Of a stretch of 64,000 bases of DNA, positions 2,464-57,379 are shown piece after piece. A model generated the notes under the pieces. The model worked only from the letters and a program-made list of their open reading frames with translations, had not been told where the DNA came from and searched no databases. The translations under genes were made by a program, and so were the position numbers. The DNA is from an uncultured Candidatus Binatia bacterium (GTDB lineage: Bacteria; Desulfobacterota; Binatia; UBA9968; CAXXLF01): NCBI GenBank assembly GCA_965218425.1, contig OZ244621.1, positions 2,880,001-2,944,000 of the forward strand. The letters are read 5' to 3'. Positions within the stretch are counted from its first letter, which is position 1; every line of letters starts with the position of its first letter.

Positions 2464-3606
2464 TTATCGCCTTTGGGCTTGAGACATCGCTCTTTTGATA
2501 ACTTTTCTCGCTGGTGTCAGATCCATCCATTCCGGGCGAACTGATCTCAGGTATTTCCCTCCTAACTTACGACGGTTTTCAATGGGAACATCATCCTTTG
2601 GGATGTCGATCCTGAGGGAGTCTGCACCGGGCCTGGCCAGCAAGCGGCTCTTTTGATACGCCATCTGTCCTTCTCGCGACAAGAACCAGTTAATAAAAAC
2701 CTTCGCTGCGTTGGGATGCGGGGCTCGATTCAAAAGAACGATATTCCCCAGGATGGGAACGATGCTCGCCCCCTCTTCCAGGCCATAAGGCCTGACCGTA
2801 TCCACTGGAAGCCCCTGCGCCTTGGCCGTGCGCACGCCGTAACAAAAGAGACAAACCGAGTACTTGCCGTTGGCGAGCCAATCAAGCCGCTGCCGTCTGT
2901 CTCGGGTCACTCTAATGTTGGTTTCGCTAAAGAGACGGGTCAAATAGGAGGGCCCCAATTCCGGGTTATTGTACATAAACCGGGTCCCGTGACTGACGAT
3001 ACCCGGTATCATAGGATCCTCGACCACGAGCTCTCCTCTCCATTTGGGTTTAAGCAGGTTCCGGTAAGACGTGATCTCGCCTCGCTTTACAAGGTTAACG
3101 TTGTAATGTACGTAATCCTGCGCGGTGCCTTCAAAGCTGAAAATAAACTTGCCTTCGGAATCTACGTAACTATGCTTGCCCTCAAACCACTTTGACCGAT
3201 CCTTCACCTCCGGCAAGATCAAAGTGGGGGGGATCGGATCAAGGACTTTGGCCTGGTAAAATACCTGATACAGTGTCGTGGGACCAGTAGTAAAAAGGTC
3301 GAGAAGATATTTTCCAGCCCTCCGCTCGGTCATGACCCTTTGTGCCTCTTGAAACCACATGGACATTCTCGTGACGGTCTTGATCTGTGGGTAGGCCTTA
3401 TTAAATTGTTTCACCACGGGATTGAGGCTCGAGGATAGGTAAATGTCCAGTCGTCCCTCTTTTCGTACCGCCGCGAGAGTTCTCTCCCACTCGGCTTTCC
3501 ACGTTGGTTTTGCCTCCCCGGAGAATGCGGGTTGTGCTTTCAGAAAGAACACTCCGAGGAGAACACCGCTGGTCAATACCCCTAAGTATAGGAGGCTCCG
3601 TTCCAT
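2464..3606 (-). CDS. ABC transporter substrate-binding protein (Fe3+/polyamine/thiamine-type fold)
   Basis: Signal-peptide-like N-terminus and NRAPHPNAAKVFINWFLSREGQ motif. Confidence 0.85.
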   Translation of the reverse strand: MERSLLYLGVLTSGVLLGVFFLKAQPAFSGEAKPTWKAEWERTLAAVRKEGRLDIYLSSSLNPVVKQFNKAYPQIKTVTRMSMWFQEAQRVMTERRAGKYLLDLFTTGPTTLYQVFYQAKVLDPIPPTLILPEVKDRSKWFEGKHSYVDSEGKFIFSFEGTAQDYVHYNVNLVKRGEITSYRNLLKPKWRGELVVEDPMIPGIVSHGTRFMYNNPELGPSYLTRLFSETNIRVTRDRRQRLDWLANGKYSVCLFCYGVRTAKAQGLPVDTVRPYGLEEGASIVPILGNIVLLNRAPHPNAAKVFINWFLSREGQMAYQKSRLLARPGADSLRIDIPKDDVPIENRRKLGGKYLRSVRPEWMDLTPARKVIKRAMSQAQRR

Positions 3607-46327: not shown

Positions 46328-46716
46328 TTCAGTTCCCATCTCTCTTTGCGGGTGAGATTTCCGAACAACTGAACAACTGCGGGTAAGCTGTGGAAAACTG
46401 GGCTCTATCCTTGGAGGCCTGAGACCGGCATCGCATTTGTGCCGTCACCGAGCTAGTGAAAGGTTCAGGCGTAGAGGGTTTAGACTTGGGGCTTTGGTGT
46501 AAACCGCTTGGGGGTTCACATGAAGGGCAGTTGTCCATAGGCCCTAATTAACCGAAGTTTTCGGAAGCGTGCCAGGGAATGAATTGACATCAGCAAACTG
46601 GCGCCTATATCAGGGTCAGGTTAAGGGTGTCAAGGGAGTCTGAGACTGGGTAGTGGCTCAGTCTGAAATCTTAAGGGGCTGGAGTCGAAGAGACTAAGGT
46701 ATCAGGACTTGGTAGG

Positions 46717-46928
46717 TTAGGAATCTTCAAAAATGACAAGGGACTTTGTGGGGTCAATTATAAGTTTCTTCTTGAAAGCCCGTAAGAACTCCATGCCAAC
46801 CAAGATCAAACTTTCAGGTGGGCCAAGTACAATTGTGCCAACCTGATCCTCACTCTCCACTCTGGCAAAACCCCTAGCAGTCAATTGAGAACTCAACTTT
46901 CCATCAGCTAATGTTAAAGGCATTATTC
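46717..46928 (-). pseudogene. C-terminal fragment of a clan AA (retropepsin-like) aspartic protease
   Basis: LTLADG...LILVGMEFLRAFKKKLIIDP; 5' part cut off by the IS3 end. Confidence 0.6.
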
Positions 46929-48265
46929 TGAGGCGGTCCTGGTTTGTAGGACAGGATGGCGGAAGAAATAAGGTGTATTCCGGGTAATCGATCATGCCGC
47001 CAGGGTCCTGTTTAACACGTTTCGCTGTTCCGGTAGAGCCGGCAGAGGGGCAGTTGAGCTGGGGCGCTCAGGCTGCGTCCGCGGCAGCATTGCTTGTTCG
47101 TAGGCCTCGGCTGGGGTGGAGCCGGCCAAGGCAGAGTGTGGCCTCTCCCGATCATAAAAGGCGAACCAGCAAGAAATCAGGCGCTGAGCCTGGAAGCCGT
47201 CTGAGAGCTCGTGCAGGTAGACGGCCTCGTACTTGAGGGAGCGCCACAGGCGCTCGATGAAGATGTTGTCCATACACCGGCCTCTACCGTCCATAGAGAT
47301 GGCGACACGGGCGTCGTTGAGCACGGAGGTGAACTCCAGGCTGGTGAACTGGCTGCCCTGGTCGGTGTTGAAGATCTCGGGGCGGCTGTAGCGCTGGAGG
47401 GCTTCGGAGAGGGCCTCGACACAGAAGCGTGCGTCGAGGGTGTTGGAGAGCCTCCAGGAGAGCACGCGGCGGGTGGCCCAGTCCATGACCGCCACCAAGT
47501 ACAGGAAGCCGCGCTGGACCGGGATATAGGTGATGTCCGCGGTCCAGACGTGATTGGGCCGCTCGATGGCGACTCCCTTGAGCAGATAGGGATAAACCCG
47601 GTGCTCCGGATGCGGTCGGGTGGTCCGGGGTGCCTGGTAGATGGCCTGCAGACCCATCAGGCGCATCAGACGCCGCACCCGGTGGCGACCCACACGGACG
47701 CCTTCCCGCCACAGATGGCGGACCATCTGGCGGCTGCCGTAGAATGGGTAGCTCAGAAACAGCTCATCGATCCGGCGCATCAACCCAAGATTCTCTGCGC
47801 TCTCGCCCTTGGGCCTGTGGTACACCGAGGATCGGCTCACACGGAGCAGGTGGCATTGACGGCTCAAGCTGAGCTTGGGATGGCCGGGCTCGATCATCGC
47901 CCGGCGCTTCTCCCGGCTCACCACTTGAGCCCTTTGGCCAAAAAATCCCGCTCCACCGTCAACTCCCCGATCTTCGCGTGCAGGTTCCGGATCTCCCCCT
48001 CGTGCTCCCCACGCGACCGCTCCGCCCCCTTCGAGAAGACCTCCCTCATGCCCTCCACCGCCCGCTGCTTCCAGGTGCTCACCTGGTTCGGGTGTATCTT
48101 GTGCCGCGCCGCGATCTCCTGAATCGTCTTGTCTCCGCGCAGCGCTTCCAGCGCCACCTTCGCCTTGAAGTCCCCGCTGAACCGTCGCCGTGTGCTCATT
48201 GCGCATCCCTCCTTCAGTCGGTGGAATACACCTTAGCAACCTGTCCGTTTTTCGGGACCACCTCA
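46929..48265 (-). mobile_element. IS3-family insertion sequence (OrfA 47918..48199; OrfB ending at 46992)
   Basis: IRs TGAGGCGGTCCTGGTTTGTAGGACAGG / TGAGGTGGTCCCGAAAAACGGACAGG (rc); WTADITYI, FNTDQGSQF and DNIFIERLWRSLKYE motifs. No target duplication. Confidence 0.93.
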
Positions 48266-48266
48266 T

Positions 48267-48398
48267 CTTGACGAATTTAATTTTAGGTACAACCTAAGAA
48301 AGAGCAAGGATGGCGAACGGTCTATTTTGGCAATCAAAGAGGTAAGTGGAAAACGATTGACTTACAAACAGCCAGTTGAAAAGACCACAGACAAATGA
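48267..48398 (+). pseudogene. IS1595-family transposase C-terminal fragment
   Basis: LDEFNFRYNLRKSKDGERSILAIKEVSGKRLTYKQ matches the family tail pattern YLDEFxFRYN...GKRLTY. Confidence 0.85.
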
Positions 48399-48413
48399 TA
48401 CTTTTTTAAGTGA

Positions 48414-48488
48414 TGGGGCGCAGGGGGATCGAACCCCTAGTAAAGCAGATTCCAGGTCTGCTGCGTTTGCCAGTTACGCCAGCGCCCC
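48414..48488 (-). tRNA. Non-canonical tRNA-like gene, anticodon TGG
   Basis: Full cloverleaf: GGGGCGC/GCGCCCC-A acceptor, GCGT/ACGC D stem, GCAGA-CCTGGAA-TCTGC anticodon arm, AGGGG-TTCGATC-CCCCT T arm. No encoded CCA; C33 instead of U33. Confidence 0.8.
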
Positions 48489-48494
48489 ATAAAA

Positions 48495-48944
48495 CTAAGC
48501 AATAATCTCTTTAAGGTCATCGTCTAGACCAAAGTTGTCTGGAAATTCCCCATCATCCACTTTCTGCTGTTGTTCAAACTCAATTAAGCCATAGGTGTTG
48601 GGTGCGGTCTTTGTAAAGATTTCTCCTTTTTTTGAGTAGCTAGCAAGGGATGCTCCAACCGATGAGCGGTTGTTTCTTGTATTTTCCTTTCCTATACCTT
48701 TGAGAATATCCTTGATGTGCATCGGCCTTCCCGACTTCGTGAGACAATCTCTGGCTTTGGCCATATTGCTGCCTTCCCGTAAAGCACGGTCAGTATCCAC
48801 CGAGCCATCTCTGGGTAAAACCTTTAAGGCCTCTTGCAGACCTTGGATAAATGCTTGTAGTTCTCGTAGCTTAGCCTCAGTTTCAGCTATTTCTTGCTTT
48901 TTTATATCTATCTTTCGTTCTAATTGGATTCGGAAATTAATCAT
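48495..48944 (-). CDS. Coiled-coil plus winged-helix (HARE-HTH-like) protein with acidic tail
   Basis: N-terminal heptads; LTKSGRPMHIKDILKGIG...SLASYSKKGEIFTKTAPNTYGL. Confidence 0.7.
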   Translation of the reverse strand: MINFRIQLERKIDIKKQEIAETEAKLRELQAFIQGLQEALKVLPRDGSVDTDRALREGSNMAKARDCLTKSGRPMHIKDILKGIGKENTRNNRSSVGASLASYSKKGEIFTKTAPNTYGLIEFEQQQKVDDGEFPDNFGLDDDLKEIIA

Positions 48945-49080
48945 GGCAATTCCTCCAATATGGGAGATTTACCACATTCACCGAACCATTGTCAACATTT
49001 GATGGAAAATGCTTGCGTTGTGACAACAATATGTTATCATTGCACCTGTGAGATTTTACCAAATCTAAACTGGAGGCAAT

Positions 49081-49908
49081 GTGATGGATGTAAATGAAAT
49101 CCATAAAAAGTTAGATCAAATTAAGCACATACAGGACTTGGGGCCTGAGAGAACAGTCGAATATTGGATGGCTAGGGACCTGCAAGTAATACTTGGATAT
49201 GAAGCCTGGCAGAATTTCGAATCCGTGATTGCAAGGGCGATGCATGCTTGCGAAACCAGCGGCAAGAATCCCGACAATCACTTTAATGCTACCATTAAAG
49301 AGATAAGGGCCGGGAAGGGTGCGATAGGACGACGACAGGATTACCGACTGACAAGATACGCTTGCTACCTTGTGACTATGAATGGCGATCCTAGCCAGAA
49401 ATTACAGGTTGGTCTAGCTCAAACATATTTTGCGGTGCAGACAAGGCGGCAAGAACTCGATGACCAGCTAACCTATGAACAGAAACGACTGATTCAACGC
49501 GAACGAGTAAGAAACGCGAATAAGTATTTAAGTAATGCGGCCAAGAAAGCAGGTGTAAAAAAGTTTGGCGTATTTCAGGATGCAGGCTATCGCGGTCTCT
49601 ATCAAATGAGTTATAAAGAGATCAAGCGAACAAAGGGGATTCCAGACCAGGAAAATCTTTTGGATTGTAGTGGACGGGCTGAGCTGGCTGCGAATGAATT
49701 TCGGATTACCCAAACAGAGGAACGTCTTACCAACGAGAAAATCCAAGGGGAAATGCAAGCTACAAACACCCATCATAAAGTGGGCACAAAGGTGAGGCAA
49801 ACTATCAAAGAGCTTGGCGGAACAATGCCAGAAAAACTGGTCGCTGAGCCATCAATTAAAAGATTGACCCAAAAGAAGCAAAAACAGCTACCGCCTAAAG
49901 ATGAATAA
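49081..49908 (+). CDS. dinD: DNA damage-inducible protein D (BRO-like N-terminus)
   Basis: EYWMARDLQ, LTRYACYL, AQTYFAVQTRRQE, FQDAGYRGLY, ELAANEFRITQTEE and GGTMPE motifs. Confidence 0.9.
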   Translation: MMDVNEIHKKLDQIKHIQDLGPERTVEYWMARDLQVILGYEAWQNFESVIARAMHACETSGKNPDNHFNATIKEIRAGKGAIGRRQDYRLTRYACYLVTMNGDPSQKLQVGLAQTYFAVQTRRQELDDQLTYEQKRLIQRERVRNANKYLSNAAKKAGVKKFGVFQDAGYRGLYQMSYKEIKRTKGIPDQENLLDCSGRAELAANEFRITQTEERLTNEKIQGEMQATNTHHKVGTKVRQTIKELGGTMPEKLVAEPSIKRLTQKKQKQLPPKDE

Positions 49909-50032
49909 AAAGACCACGCCACCTGATAAAGAACTCACCGAAAAGCAATTCCTCGAAGTTTTGAAGGGTTTTCTCGAAGTCAAACCAACCAAGAGAAAGC
50001 CCAAGGCAAAAAAACCCAAATCCAAGAAATAA
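49901..50032 (+). CDS. Small basic 43-aa protein
   Basis: Overlaps the dinD stop; MNKKTTPPDKELTEKQFLEVLKGFLEVKPTKRKPKAKKPKSKK. Confidence 0.45.
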   Translation: MNKKTTPPDKELTEKQFLEVLKGFLEVKPTKRKPKAKKPKSKK

Positions 50033-50087
50033 TTATATTTCAATTACTTACCCTTTCCTGTATTGGGTTTGTGAACGGGATAAGCCA

Positions 50088-50225
50088 CAGTCTGTTAAAG
50101 GCGATAAGGACAAGGCCGTTGGCTTTAACCTAGCAGGCATCAAACAACTTCGATTTACCGATCCAGAACTGGAGTTCACCCCGGCATTGAAGCAAAACAT
50201 CGAGCGTTTCTTCAAATTGAAATAA
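50088..50225 (+). pseudogene. C-terminal fragment of the gene interrupted by the IS1595 element
   Basis: Startless open frame QSVKGDKDKAVGFNLAGIKQLRFTDPELEFTPALKQNIERFFKLK* ending just before the mrr-like gene. Confidence 0.5.
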
Positions 50226-50238
50226 AAGGACTACTTCC

Positions 50239-51294
50239 ATGGCGATCTGGTTAATCCGTGCCGGTTCCCACGGCGAATACGAGCAGAAGTTCATTCAGGA
50301 AAACCGTGTTTATGTGACTTGGGACAGACTCGATGTAGACCTCACCAAGCTCCAGCAAAAGGCCGATTTGACAGCAGCGATGACCGAGCGCTACCCGGAC
50401 AGAAAGCCCAAGACGATTCAGAATTGGGTGAGCCAAGTCTGGCCCTTCGCGCATGAAATGATGAAAGGCGATTTGGTCGTGTTGCCGCTCAAGTCGCAGC
50501 CCGCCATCCAGATTGCCGAGATTACCGGTGACTATCACTTCGAACCTTCTGGACCCGACCCATACTTTCATTGGCGACCCGTGAAGTGGATTGCAGAGGC
50601 CGTGCCGCGCGCCAATTTCGGCCAGGACTTGCTCTATACCTTCGGTGCCTTTATGGCCATCTGCCGGGTCCAACGCAACAATGCAGAGCAACGCATGGCC
50701 GCCATGCAGACGAACGGATGGAAACCTGAAACCATCCAACCCATCTACAAACCATCCAACATATCTACCAAAACCGCGGTGCCGGGCACGGAAGAACTGC
50801 CCGAAGACAGTGACCTTGAAGAACTCGCCCGCGACCAGATCGCTCAGCTCATCGCAGCGCGATTCAAGGGCCACGGACTCACGCGACTGGTCGAAGCTAT
50901 CCTCAAAATCCAGGGTTACACCACCTATCGCAGCGCGGAAGGCCCCGACGGTGGCGTGGATATTATCGCGGGTGCCGGGCCACTCGGCTTCGGGAAGCCG
51001 CGACTCTGCGTCGAAGTGAAATCAGAGAGCGGCCCTATCGACCGCCCGACGGTAGACAAACTGTTGGGCGCGGTTACTAAATTCGGAGCGGACGAAGGCT
51101 TATTCATCTCATGGAGCGGCTTCAAGGGCAACGTGCAGAAGGAACTCGCTGCCAGCTTCTTTCGTGTGCGGCTGTGGACGCAGAAAGAACTACTTGAGCA
51201 ACTATTTACCCACTACGACCACCTGGACGAAGACCTTAAGGCCGAATTGCCTTTGAAAAGAATTTGGACCGTGGCCGTGCAGGACAAAGAATAA
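50239..51294 (+). CDS. Mrr-like (type IV) restriction endonuclease
   Basis: WLIRAG N-terminal domain; Mrr_cat motif GPDGGVDIIA...VEVKS...GLFISWSGF. Confidence 0.88.
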   Translation: MAIWLIRAGSHGEYEQKFIQENRVYVTWDRLDVDLTKLQQKADLTAAMTERYPDRKPKTIQNWVSQVWPFAHEMMKGDLVVLPLKSQPAIQIAEITGDYHFEPSGPDPYFHWRPVKWIAEAVPRANFGQDLLYTFGAFMAICRVQRNNAEQRMAAMQTNGWKPETIQPIYKPSNISTKTAVPGTEELPEDSDLEELARDQIAQLIAARFKGHGLTRLVEAILKIQGYTTYRSAEGPDGGVDIIAGAGPLGFGKPRLCVEVKSESGPIDRPTVDKLLGAVTKFGADEGLFISWSGFKGNVQKELAASFFRVRLWTQKELLEQLFTHYDHLDEDLKAELPLKRIWTVAVQDKE

Positions 51295-54526: not shown

Positions 54527-57379
54527 ATGACGCCGGGTGAGTTCATCGCCAAGTGGCGGGCATCGGAACTGAAGGAGCGCTCGGCGTCACAGGAGCACTT
54601 CATCGACCTGTGCCGGCTGTTGGGCGAGCCGACGCCGGCCGAAGCCGACCCGACCGGCGAGCATTACTGCTTCGAGCGCGGCTCACGTAAGGATGGCGGC
54701 GGCGACGGCTGGGCCGACGTGTGGAAGCGGCACTGCTTCGCCTGGGAGTACAAGGGCAAGCACGCGGACCTTGACGCTGCCTTCAACCAGTTGCGGCAAT
54801 ACGCGCTTGCACTGGAGAACCCGCCGTTGCTGATTGTCTCGGACATGGTTCGGTTCCGCATCCGCACCAACTGGACCAACAGCGTCAGCCGGACCCACGA
54901 GTTCGACTTGGCCGATCTTGCGGATGCGGCCACCCGCGACAGGCTCAAGTGGGCGATGTCCGACCCCGAGCGCCTGCGCCCCGGCGAGAGCCGGCAGGCG
55001 CTGACCGAACGCGCGGCGGCGGCCTTCGCATTGCTGGCGCAGTCGTTGCGGGAGCACGGCCACGAGCCGCAGGCAGTGGCGCATTTCGTGAACCGTCTGG
55101 TGTTCTGCATGTTCGTCGAGGATGTGGGCCTGCTGCCCGGCAACATGTTCACCCGGATGCTGGAACAAGGGCGAAAGCGGCCCGGGGACTTCGCCGTCAT
55201 GGCGCGGGATCTGTTCGGGGCGATGTCCACCGGAGGCCGGATCGGGTTCGAGGCGGTGGCGTGGTTCAACGGCGGGCTGTTCGACGACGACACCGCCTTG
55301 CCGCTGGACAAGGCGGAGATCGAGACAACGCTCAAGGCGGCGGCGCTCGACTGGTCGGAGATCGATCCTTCGATCCTGGGCACGCTGTTCGAGCGCGGGC
55401 TCGACCCGGACAAGCGCTCGCAGCTTGGGGCGCACTACACCGACCGGGACAAGATCATGCGGATCATCGAGCCCGTGATCATCCGTCCCTGGCTCGCCGA
55501 ATGGGAGAAGACAAAGGCCGAGGTCGCCGCGGTCCTTGAACGGGCGGATGCGGCCAAACCGAAGGCGGCGGCGACTCGACAGCGGGGGCAGGCGGAACGG
55601 CTACTGCGTGTTTTCCTCGAACGGCTGCGGAAGTTCACCGTGCTCGACCCCGCCTGCGGCTCGGGGAACTTCCTCTATCTGTCGCTGCACGCGCTCAAGG
55701 ACCTGGAGCACCGGGTACAGTTGGAGGCCGAGGCGATGGGCCTCGAACGGGCTTTCCCGGCGGTCGGTCCGGCCAACGTCAAGGGGATCGAGGTCAATGC
55801 CTATGCGGCGGAATTGGCCCGCGTATCGGTCTGGATCGGCGATATACAATGGATGCGTCGAAACGGGTTCAACGAATCGCGCGATCCGATCCTCAAGCCG
55901 CTTGACACCATCGAATGCCGCGACGCGATCCTGACACCGGAGGCTGGCGAGCCGGAGTGGCCGGAGGCCGATGTAGTGATCGGGAACCCGCCGTTTCTCG
56001 GCGGCAAGCTCCTGATTGCCAACCTTGGCGAGGACTACGTTTCGAGCATTTTCACGGTGTATGAGGGCCGCGTGCCTGCGGAAGCCGATCTCGTCTGCTA
56101 CTGGTTCGTGAAGGCCGGTAAACATATAGGATCAAACAAGGCGAAACGGGTCGGGCTTGTAGCAACCAATTCCATTCGCGGTGGCGCTAACCGGCGGGCG
56201 CTGCAAGCCGCGACCGAGGGGCGGCGGATCTTCGAGGCATTGAGCGACGAGCCGTGGGTGATCGACGGGGCGGCAGTGCGGGTGTCGTTGATCTGCTTCT
56301 CGCACGCCGCCGCCGAATCCGTGTCCGGCGCTCGGCTCGACGACGAGTCCGTCGACGAGATCTACGCGGACCTGACGGCGCGGAGCGGCGGCACCGGCTT
56401 CGATCTGACGGGCGTCCGGCGTCTTGCGGAGAACGCCAGCGTGGCTTTCATGGGCGACACGAAGGGTGGTCCCTTCGATGTTGCGGGCGATCGGGCGCGC
56501 GGGTGGCTCCGTCTGCCGGCGAACCCGAACGGCCGGACCAACGCCGACGTTCTGAAGCCGTGGGTGAACGGTATGGACCTCACCCGGCGGCCGGCAGGGA
56601 AGTGGATCGTCGACTTTGGGTTGAAGATGTCAGTCGGCGACGGGGCGCTCTACGAAGAGCCGTTCCGGTGGGTGAAGGAACACGTCCGGTCAACATGGGA
56701 CAAGCAACGTGTAGCCGAGAGACGTGATCAGTGGTGGTTGCACCATCGGCCACGGCCGAACATGTGGGCGGCGCTCGGCAAGCTGTTGCGCTTCATCGCC
56801 ACGCCGACAGTGGCAAAGCACCGACTGTTCGCCTGGCTCGACGCCCGCATCTGTCCGGATCATCAACTGATCGTCATCGCGCGCGACGACGACACGACCT
56901 TCGGCATCCTGCACAGCCGCTTCCACGAAGCGTGGTCGCTCAGGCTCGGCACCAGCTTGGAAGATCGCCCGCGTTACACGCCGACCACTACCTTCGAGAC
57001 CTTCCCTTTCCCGGAAGGGCTGTCGCCCGACATTCCCGCCGCCGACTATGCAAACGACCCGCATGCTAGGGCCATCGCCGAGGCCGCGCGGAGGCTTGTC
57101 GAACTGCGCGACCGCTGGCTCAACCCGCCTGAATGGGTGGAATGGGTAGACGAGCCGGTCCCCGGCTATCCCATGCGTCCTGTCGCCCGCGACCAAGCGG
57201 CCGCGAAGGAACTCAAGAAACGCACCTTGACCAATCTTTACAACGCCCGTCCGCAATGGCTCACCGACGCCCACGTGAACCTCGACGCTGCCGTCGCGGC
57301 AGCCTATGGATGGGATGCCGGGATTTCAGAGGATGAAGCCCTGAAGAAACTGTTAGAATTGAACCACCAGAGAAAATGA
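54527..57379 (+). CDS. MmeI-like type IIG restriction-modification enzyme / N6-adenine methyltransferase
   Basis: N-terminal GWADVWK...EYK nuclease-like motif; GAHYT, LDPACGSGNFL, GNPPF and C-terminal LDAAVAAAYGW. Confidence 0.9.
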   Translation: MTPGEFIAKWRASELKERSASQEHFIDLCRLLGEPTPAEADPTGEHYCFERGSRKDGGGDGWADVWKRHCFAWEYKGKHADLDAAFNQLRQYALALENPPLLIVSDMVRFRIRTNWTNSVSRTHEFDLADLADAATRDRLKWAMSDPERLRPGESRQALTERAAAAFALLAQSLREHGHEPQAVAHFVNRLVFCMFVEDVGLLPGNMFTRMLEQGRKRPGDFAVMARDLFGAMSTGGRIGFEAVAWFNGGLFDDDTALPLDKAEIETTLKAAALDWSEIDPSILGTLFERGLDPDKRSQLGAHYTDRDKIMRIIEPVIIRPWLAEWEKTKAEVAAVLERADAAKPKAAATRQRGQAERLLRVFLERLRKFTVLDPACGSGNFLYLSLHALKDLEHRVQLEAEAMGLERAFPAVGPANVKGIEVNAYAAELARVSVWIGDIQWMRRNGFNESRDPILKPLDTIECRDAILTPEAGEPEWPEADVVIGNPPFLGGKLLIANLGEDYVSSIFTVYEGRVPAEADLVCYWFVKAGKHIGSNKAKRVGLVATNSIRGGANRRALQAATEGRRIFEALSDEPWVIDGAAVRVSLICFSHAAAESVSGARLDDESVDEIYADLTARSGGTGFDLTGVRRLAENASVAFMGDTKGGPFDVAGDRARGWLRLPANPNGRTNADVLKPWVNGMDLTRRPAGKWIVDFGLKMSVGDGALYEEPFRWVKEHVRSTWDKQRVAERRDQWWLHHRPRPNMWAALGKLLRFIATPTVAKHRLFAWLDARICPDHQLIVIARDDDTTFGILHSRFHEAWSLRLGTSLEDRPRYTPTTTFETFPFPEGLSPDIPAADYANDPHARAIAEAARRLVELRDRWLNPPEWVEWVDEPVPGYPMRPVARDQAAAKELKKRTLTNLYNARPQWLTDAHVNLDAAVAAAYGWDAGISEDEALKKLLELNHQRK

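Follow-up and report, generated by a model that had tools for sequence, protein, structure and literature searches.

A predicted leucine-type tRNA with a proline anticodon recurs as a passenger of IS1595-family insertion sequences

The window analysed in this study is a stretch of 64,000 nt (contig OZ244621.1, positions 2,880,001-2,944,000, forward strand) from an uncultured Candidatus Binatia bacterium. Between the tail of an IS1595 transposase and a terminal inverted repeat, the window contains a tRNA gene, a gene for a coiled-coil protein with a winged helix-turn-helix (wHTH), a divergent dinD gene and a small basic ORF (Table 1). All four genes lie inside the right end of the element and are thus passenger genes, which transporter members of the IS1595 family reportedly carry. 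The small basic ORF gave no family match in profile searches.

Table 1. Features of the IS1595-family element and its borders in the window
Feature	Position	Strand	Basis or remark
IS3-family element	46929..48266	-	profile match; ends judged by eye
3' tail of IS1595 transposase, 43 aa	48267..48398	+	alignment with IS1595 C-termini
tRNA gene, leucine-type body, anticodon UGG (predicted)	48414..48488	-	Rfam, ARAGORN, folding
Coiled-coil and winged-helix (HARE-HTH-like) protein, 149 aa (fold predicted)	48495..48944	-	Pfam, structure model
Divergent intergenic region	48945..49080		between the wHTH gene and dinD
dinD (DNA damage-inducible protein D, Bro-N domain)	49081..49908	+	NCBIfam equivalog
Small basic ORF, 43 aa	49901..50032	+	like ORFs at the ends of IS1595 relatives
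Right terminal inverted repeat of IS1595 element	50066..50088	-	last base 50086-50088
Orphan C-terminal ORF piece outside element	50088..50225	+	probable interrupted target gene

A preliminary description, made from the sequence alone, had recognized the transposase tail and a candidate terminal repeat, and comparison with related elements agrees with both. The 43-residue tail gave no HMM match and aligns with IS1595 C-termini, with 60% over 40 columns relative to locus L339. A CCA proline codon (48372-48374) stands in its C-terminal GKRLTYxx[X] motif; GKRLTY is typical of the C-termini of IS1595 transposases. Compared by eye with the inverted repeat that bounds the complete element L348, the right end (about 50066-50088) is identical at 17 of 22 positions. 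The IS3-family element cuts off the transposase gene, and the 5' part of this gene and the left end of IS1595 are gone; the window copy is therefore a stump. No duplication of 3-4 bp was found at the ends of the IS3 element, which is consistent with an adjacent deletion. Beyond the right end, the orphan ORF piece is probably what remains of the interrupted target gene. The IS1595 element is single-copy in the host genome. A promoter and terminator scan returned nothing above chance; the divergent intergenic region does contain a perfect -35 hexamer, uncalled by the scan, which is directed at the wHTH gene and accompanied by a weak -10.

The surroundings of the element also deserve description. 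Left of the IS3 element (46649-46928) lies what appears by eye to be a fragment of an aspartyl-protease-like gene, together with what we take to be an IS1-type end motif. A Mrr-type nuclease gene and a MmeI-type restriction-modification gene are found at 50239-51294 and 54527-57379, placing the element within a defence island, in which more remnants of IS elements are also present.

The structure model of the wHTH protein (pLDDT 87) comprises a long helix (residues 4-42) and a winged helix. It thus supports the predicted winged-helix fold, as the preliminary description had read it from the sequence. The match to Pfam HARE-HTH (PF05066) reaches 23.7 bits, below the cut-off of 25.9; a structural search with the model gave weak winged-helix matches, none at E<=0.001, and a sequence search of the PDB returned coiled-coil noise only. 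The dinD product scores above the cut-off of its NCBIfam equivalog (306.9 versus 242), in agreement with the earlier naming of this gene. The wHTH family has 1308 representatives at E<=0.001. As close homologues we considered 28 non-self loci (L001-L016, L018-L025, L070, L071, L142 and L143), among which L008 and L009 are near-copies and L023-L025 come from the unpublished genomes G087, G213 and G183. A divergent dinD faces the wHTH homologue in all 28. In none of them is the homologue followed by a leucine-body/UGG-type tRNA, three of the loci having fewer than 200 bases downstream; in L006, a host-type initiator tRNA lies 98 bases downstream. Five transposases near wHTH homologues were scanned and proved to be IS1-, IS5- and IS6-like and IS1595. 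A genome of the same genus (G214) holds the wHTH and dinD genes, at 75-82% DNA identity, in a complete IS1595 element that is flanked by an 8-bp duplication and lacks the tRNA. This G214 element also carries an aspartyl protease gene of the kind seen left of the IS3 element. No relatives of the wHTH protein were found in viral contigs, plasmids or phages. The stable unit is the wHTH gene with dinD. The idea of a mobile IS1595 cargo is supported by the G214 element. An obligate protein and tRNA unit, as the preliminary description suggested, is not supported for this protein family: the close homologues lack the cloverleaf, G214 included, and one half of what that description had named as a refutation is thereby observed. 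The tRNA itself is nevertheless linked to IS1595 elements, as shown below. At L008/L009 (1088-5806), the wHTH and dinD genes and an IS1-like transposase adjoin a retron St85-type reverse transcriptase with its effector.

Six bases separate the stop codon of the wHTH gene from base 1 of the RNA on the same strand. The tRNA cloverleaf noticed there previously is well supported: Rfam scores it as tRNA at 53.3 bits (gathering threshold 29, E 1.9e-9), ARAGORN calls it as the single tRNA of the window, with anticodon TGG, all 21 stem pairs are Watson-Crick, and its folding z-score is -3.33, with 0 of 200 shuffles as good. In bacteria, leucine identity is set by A73, A15-U48, G18G19 and A20a, and proline identity requires G72 and G15:C48 (PMC9976931). 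The window RNA has A14, A15:U48, G18G19, A20a and A73, lacks G72, and has a 7/5 acceptor/T branch, an anticodon loop CC-UGG-AA, C33, a variable region of 6 nt and no encoded CCA end. Where a canonical bacterial tRNA-Pro(UGG) has C1:G72, G15:C48, G37 and U33, it shows G1:C72, A15:U48, A37 and C33. It carries the leucine identity set and departs from the leucine class in its short variable region and its UGG anticodon, where a long arm and a leucine anticodon would be expected. A search with the pattern of its D arm returned 25 genome loci, 20 of them with leucine anticodons in tRNA arrays, and eight viral loci in arrays, five of which are called Leu. Since the RNA lacks the proline marks and bears the leucine set, and since the D-arm matches are mostly tRNA-Leu, its body is leucine-type. 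Judged from its sequence, the RNA is thus a real tRNA gene with a leucine-type body and an anticodon predicted to read proline codons, and 'tRNA-mimic', the term used previously, is right about the fold and understates the body.

The tRNA complement of the host genome is complete and includes a tRNA-Pro(UGG); its tRNA-Leu genes are all long-arm, as are almost all bacterial tRNA-Leu (PMC6614811). By blastn the window RNA gave no plasmid match and two partial matches to phage tRNA-Leu. By visual comparison, it is most closely related to the UGG tRNA at L386, a long-arm tRNA with an identical anticodon stem. An origin from a short-arm Leu(UAG) array tRNA through two loop changes was considered, and was dropped once long-arm UGG relatives had been found. 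Short-variable-arm tRNA-Leu genes that share one common D arm do occur in tRNA arrays of many phyla (L043-L066, L036, L038, L040 and L041). Other finds with the window D arm include a degenerate tRNA beside repeat-like sequence inside an apparent type I-C cas operon, labelled by eye (L051, about 2993-3068, oriented), and lone tRNAs with non-leucine anticodons near integrase-like and terminase-like genes (L062:2993-3065 and L044). A second odd ARAGORN call in the host genome (G000:C1:2865309-2865404), a tRNA-Gly TCC of 96 bases, is probably false.

We found leucine-body UGG tRNAs at 17 distinct loci, none of them from a genome marked unpublished. Fourteen lie beside an IS1595 transposase, two have an IS1595-type end only, and one has neither, being a prophage in which the tRNA lies beside a coiled-coil/wHTH gene. 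One of these loci, L166, is also a distant wHTH locus and repeats the layout of the window, with a convergent IS1595 transposase, the tRNA, a HARE-HTH gene and a small basic ORF. The first tRNA pattern was built from the window and L166 RNAs without any IS term. It matched ten viral loci, of which four without a 7-base loop were dropped; the six true tRNAs (five distinct) comprise four by IS1595 transposases and one before a prophage wHTH gene. A last viral scan gave two true tRNAs, the other two of its four matches lacking the 7-base loop. A broader pattern matched in 9 of 231 genomes; seven of these matches were already known and had gone into the pattern itself, so that they carry no independent weight, and the two new ones are both IS1595-linked. 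Altogether, nine pattern-only matches fall outside pattern construction: six with a transposase, two with an end and one with neither. These patterns were aimed at UGG, and only a set of 40 elements is free of that bias, its query being a tRNA-bearing element. This set comes from a transposase-led search of 151 genomes in the class of G1010, a genome chosen from the same phylum as the Acidobacteriota record that contains L064, with wider flanks taken for the 40 elements. It yielded six leucine-body UGG tRNAs, one leucine-body UGC tRNA (L360:4008-4093, an alanine anticodon inside a complete IS1595 element) and none with a leucine anticodon. In seven of eight tested elements (six UGG, one UGC), inverted repeats and 8-bp duplications enclose the tRNA.

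The family is coherent in structure. With the misparsed L179 left out of the identity and pairing counts, A73 and A15:U48 are present in 16 of 16 members and G72 in none, and 319 of the 336 positions in stems are paired; of the 17 that fail, 15 fall at position 13:22. At least two Watson-Crick types occur at 15 of the 21 stem pairs, in a count that takes in the L179 row. A CCA end is encoded in 7 of 16 members, C33 is present in 4 of 17, some members have degenerate T loops, and the short variable region is peculiar to the window copy among the 17. Several long-arm members were missed by ARAGORN at default settings. An HTH-like gene lies adjacent on the same strand at seven of the 17 loci by Pfam HTH signal (window included, and only that of L166 above cut-off) and at three more by eye; six loci have none. 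On this sequence evidence, the window tRNA belongs to a recurrent family of IS1595 passengers, often placed behind some coiled-coil/HTH gene. Our searches of the open-access literature brought up no report of IS1595-borne leucine-body tRNAs with proline anticodons, nor of tRNA passengers of IS1595. Antisense pairing of the tRNA with the 3' end of the transposase gene was rejected, since in seven loci the tRNA has the same orientation as the transposase gene and precedes it.

Several further tRNAs with mismatched or irregular features were recorded along the way. Two-tRNA cassettes, in which another irregular tRNA comes before the one with UGG, are present at four loci (L351:6237-6430, L354:4860-5047, L359:4800-4980 and L385:1400-1585). 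By HARE-HTH genes we noted a serine body with CAA (L137:1991-2079), an arginine-type body with GCU (L083:2454-2527) and, near an IS1-like transposase, a serine body with UGG (L028:1950-2043), all three bodies being assigned by eye. A viral scan for serine-body UGG tRNAs gave canonical Ser(GGA) and noise, with no UGG among the 80 examined of at least 114 loci. A serine-body UAU tRNA (L300:922-1014) lies 2 kb upstream of an IS1595 transposase.

Many of the transposases of tRNA-bearing elements also share a codon. CCA occupies the column after GKRLTYxx in the window, L166, L179, L180, L184 and L305, that is, in 6 of 12 tRNA-bearing transposases versus 1 of 32 tRNA-less ones. If the preceding codon is also admitted, the counts are 8 of 12 versus 1 of 32 (Fisher p 2e-5), with the codon column and the span around it picked after the data had been seen, on a quick tree and with kinship ignored in the statistics. 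Two later, out-of-sample cases, L387 with CCA and L390, a frameshifted copy, with ACC, bring the total to 9 of 14 with CCA in this GKRLxYxxL-type motif. When labels were shuffled within the subclade, 1 of 300 shuffles was as good over all columns. We treat the link between CCA and the tRNA as a genuine association that may or may not reflect recoding. In a tRNA-less IS1595 clade (L300, L339-L341, L343-L347, L355 and L356), 9 of the 12 Ser codons in this C-terminal column are TCA, which frequently recurs at an internal site; no matching odd tRNA was found within 5 kb of its members or in the five genomes searched.

We consider the stretch to be best explained as what is left of the right side of a transporter element of the IS1595 family, with two independent passengers, the wHTH/dinD pair and a missense-type tRNA, a joint reading to which we give slightly more credence than doubt. 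As for the tRNA, the evidence tips modestly toward a missense tRNA that would put leucine at proline codons. Under this missense reading, the tRNA would be co-transcribed behind the wHTH gene, trimmed and given CCA. The host leucyl-tRNA synthetase (LeuRS), blind to the anticodon, would charge it with leucine, and the prolyl-tRNA synthetase (ProRS) would ignore it; the leucylated tRNA would then compete with the host tRNA-Pro, so that CCA/CCG codons would occasionally, at a low rate, be read as leucine. The role of the adjacent HTH gene would most likely be confined to setting the amount of tRNA via its transcript. The element may benefit through its own transposase, whose C-terminal motif contains CCA, or through a general stress caused by mistranslation. 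Related allo-tRNAs mistranslate in E. coli (PMC5389517). Among the roles proposed in the preliminary description, that of a translation modifier suits this anatomy best. Against the missense reading stand the short variable region, C33 and missing encoded CCA end of the window copy. This copy may be weakened by its short arm and C33, because the LeuRS of E. coli does not charge short-arm tRNA-Leu; that of S. coelicolor does (PMC6614811), and variable-arm sequence and folding showed no correlation with leucylation (PMC9976931). UGG lies one transition from both Leu UAG and Ser UGA, and the convergence may be partly a matter of mutational ease. The recurrence in many related elements suggests a deliberate bending of the genetic code.

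A special case of the missense reading is a self-recoding switch, in which the tRNA would read the transposase's own CCA as leucine and full activity would come only with the tRNA expressed. The CCA enrichment described above, the out-of-sample L387 and the six changes that the tRNA label needs on the quick tree speak for it. Moreover, outside the subclade the motif column holds Leu in nine and Val in four of 14, and L179 and L184 have just two CCA codons among 12 and nine Pro codons, both at two shared columns. However, tRNA-less sisters have Ser at the column in 12 of 20 cases and Leu in none; leucine is therefore not needed there. L352, L354 and L359 have no Pro at the column, L348/L349 encode Leu already, L390 has ACC, and L360, with its UGC anticodon, has TCG rather than GCA. 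A leucine-body NGA tRNA is absent from all five genomes with the TCA clade, and the column was chosen post hoc with relatedness uncorrected. The window wHTH and dinD genes have no Pro at Leu columns, so their own recoding was discarded. We regard the switch as doubtful, and we are just as hesitant about its fuller form, an IS1595 lineage with its own code-bending tRNA, whose transposase proline codon would be read as leucine under the control of the HTH gene driving the tRNA.

Non-decoding roles have to be weighed as well. Transposon-linked allo-tRNA-UAU and charged G-1 tRNAs were found not to be used in translation (Mukai 2017, PMC5389517), so that a role outside decoding deserves serious consideration, though we hold it only tentatively: a tRNA-like decoy or regulator, perhaps charged, that would soak up nucleases or toxins directed at tRNA-Pro, ProRS or modification enzymes, or would signal when uncharged. 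C33 and the degenerate T loops of some members, the position of the window within a defence-rich island (Mrr, MmeI-type) and the two-tRNA polycistrons, which resemble cases in PMC5389517, some of them charged yet unused, are in line with such a decoy. Yet a decoy has no need of the leucine identity that is kept in 16 of 16 members, and a decoy of tRNA-Pro would be expected to resemble tRNA-Pro. An obligate pair of wHTH protein and tRNA, acting as RNA antitoxin or ribonucleoprotein, appears distinctly unlikely. It could appeal to the frequent coiled-coil/HTH-like neighbours and the three further HARE-HTH genes by mismatched tRNAs (L028, L137 and L083), but the RNA is missing from every close wHTH homologue, six tRNA loci lack such a gene, and the partners come from different HTH families that are common IS passengers anyway. 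Least probable of all, in our estimate, is a chance pseudogene or leftover integration site taken up by the element. The broken, single-copy state of the window element and the tRNA-free element of G214 fit this idea, which at family level is largely refuted because such tRNAs recur within elements bounded by repeats and show compensatory changes in their stems; in the window, the intact pairs and the lack of any host tRNA as source (host set complete, Leu long-arm only) also oppose it.

Natural missense tRNAs are known, their purpose having been left open (PMC11415595, PMC5389517). The allo-tRNAs of Mukai et al. (PMC5389517) are likewise natural missense tRNAs in which the body, not the anticodon, sets the amino acid, and they too are linked to mobile DNA: in Acidobacteria and in soil they occur close to genes of transposons and toxin-antitoxin systems, and some are part of polycistrons. 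By sequence, the window RNA shares this combination of a putative body-set amino acid, a non-cognate anticodon and a mobile-DNA link. However, allo-tRNAs have an 8/4 or 9/3 branch, a Sec-like D arm, G73 or U73 and Ser, Ala or His identity; the window family, in contrast, has a 7/5 branch, A73, leucine identity and UGG, and lies inside defined IS1595 ends. The terms 'UGG', 'Leu' and 'IS1595' had no matches in one supplementary file of that paper. The tRNA-ProX/ProRSx pair of Streptomyces (PMC11415595; PMC10404621) resembles the window RNA in dual identity, in a non-U base at position 33 and in serving deliberate mistranslation, a role that is putative for the window RNA, but has a proline body, puts proline at Ala/Asn/Thr codons, comes with a co-encoded synthetase and is not on an insertion sequence (PMC11415595). 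The window element has no synthetase ORF, and its arrangement is the reverse. A short variable region is shared with the type I tRNA-Leu of Streptomyces coelicolor (PMC6614811) and with mobile array tRNAs, the array tRNA-Leu having also the same D arm and A73; these tRNAs differ in their leucine anticodons, U33 and placement in arrays. Engineered tRNA-Ser(UGG) mistranslators (PMC6827378) likewise join the body for an anticodon-blind synthetase to a proline anticodon, unlike the window family as laboratory constructs in eukaryotes with serine rather than leucine; L028 is their natural counterpart. Finally, the apparent DDE transposase tail and terminal inverted repeat, the 8-bp duplications of relatives and the variable passengers resemble those of IS1595 transporter elements.

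Here, a defined family of putative missense tRNAs lies inside small, complete insertion sequences, which makes their purpose testable with a single element of 2-4 kb. If the missense reading is true, annotation pipelines miscall such genes as tRNA-Pro or overlook them, and insertion sequences would spread local ambiguity of the genetic code between phyla.
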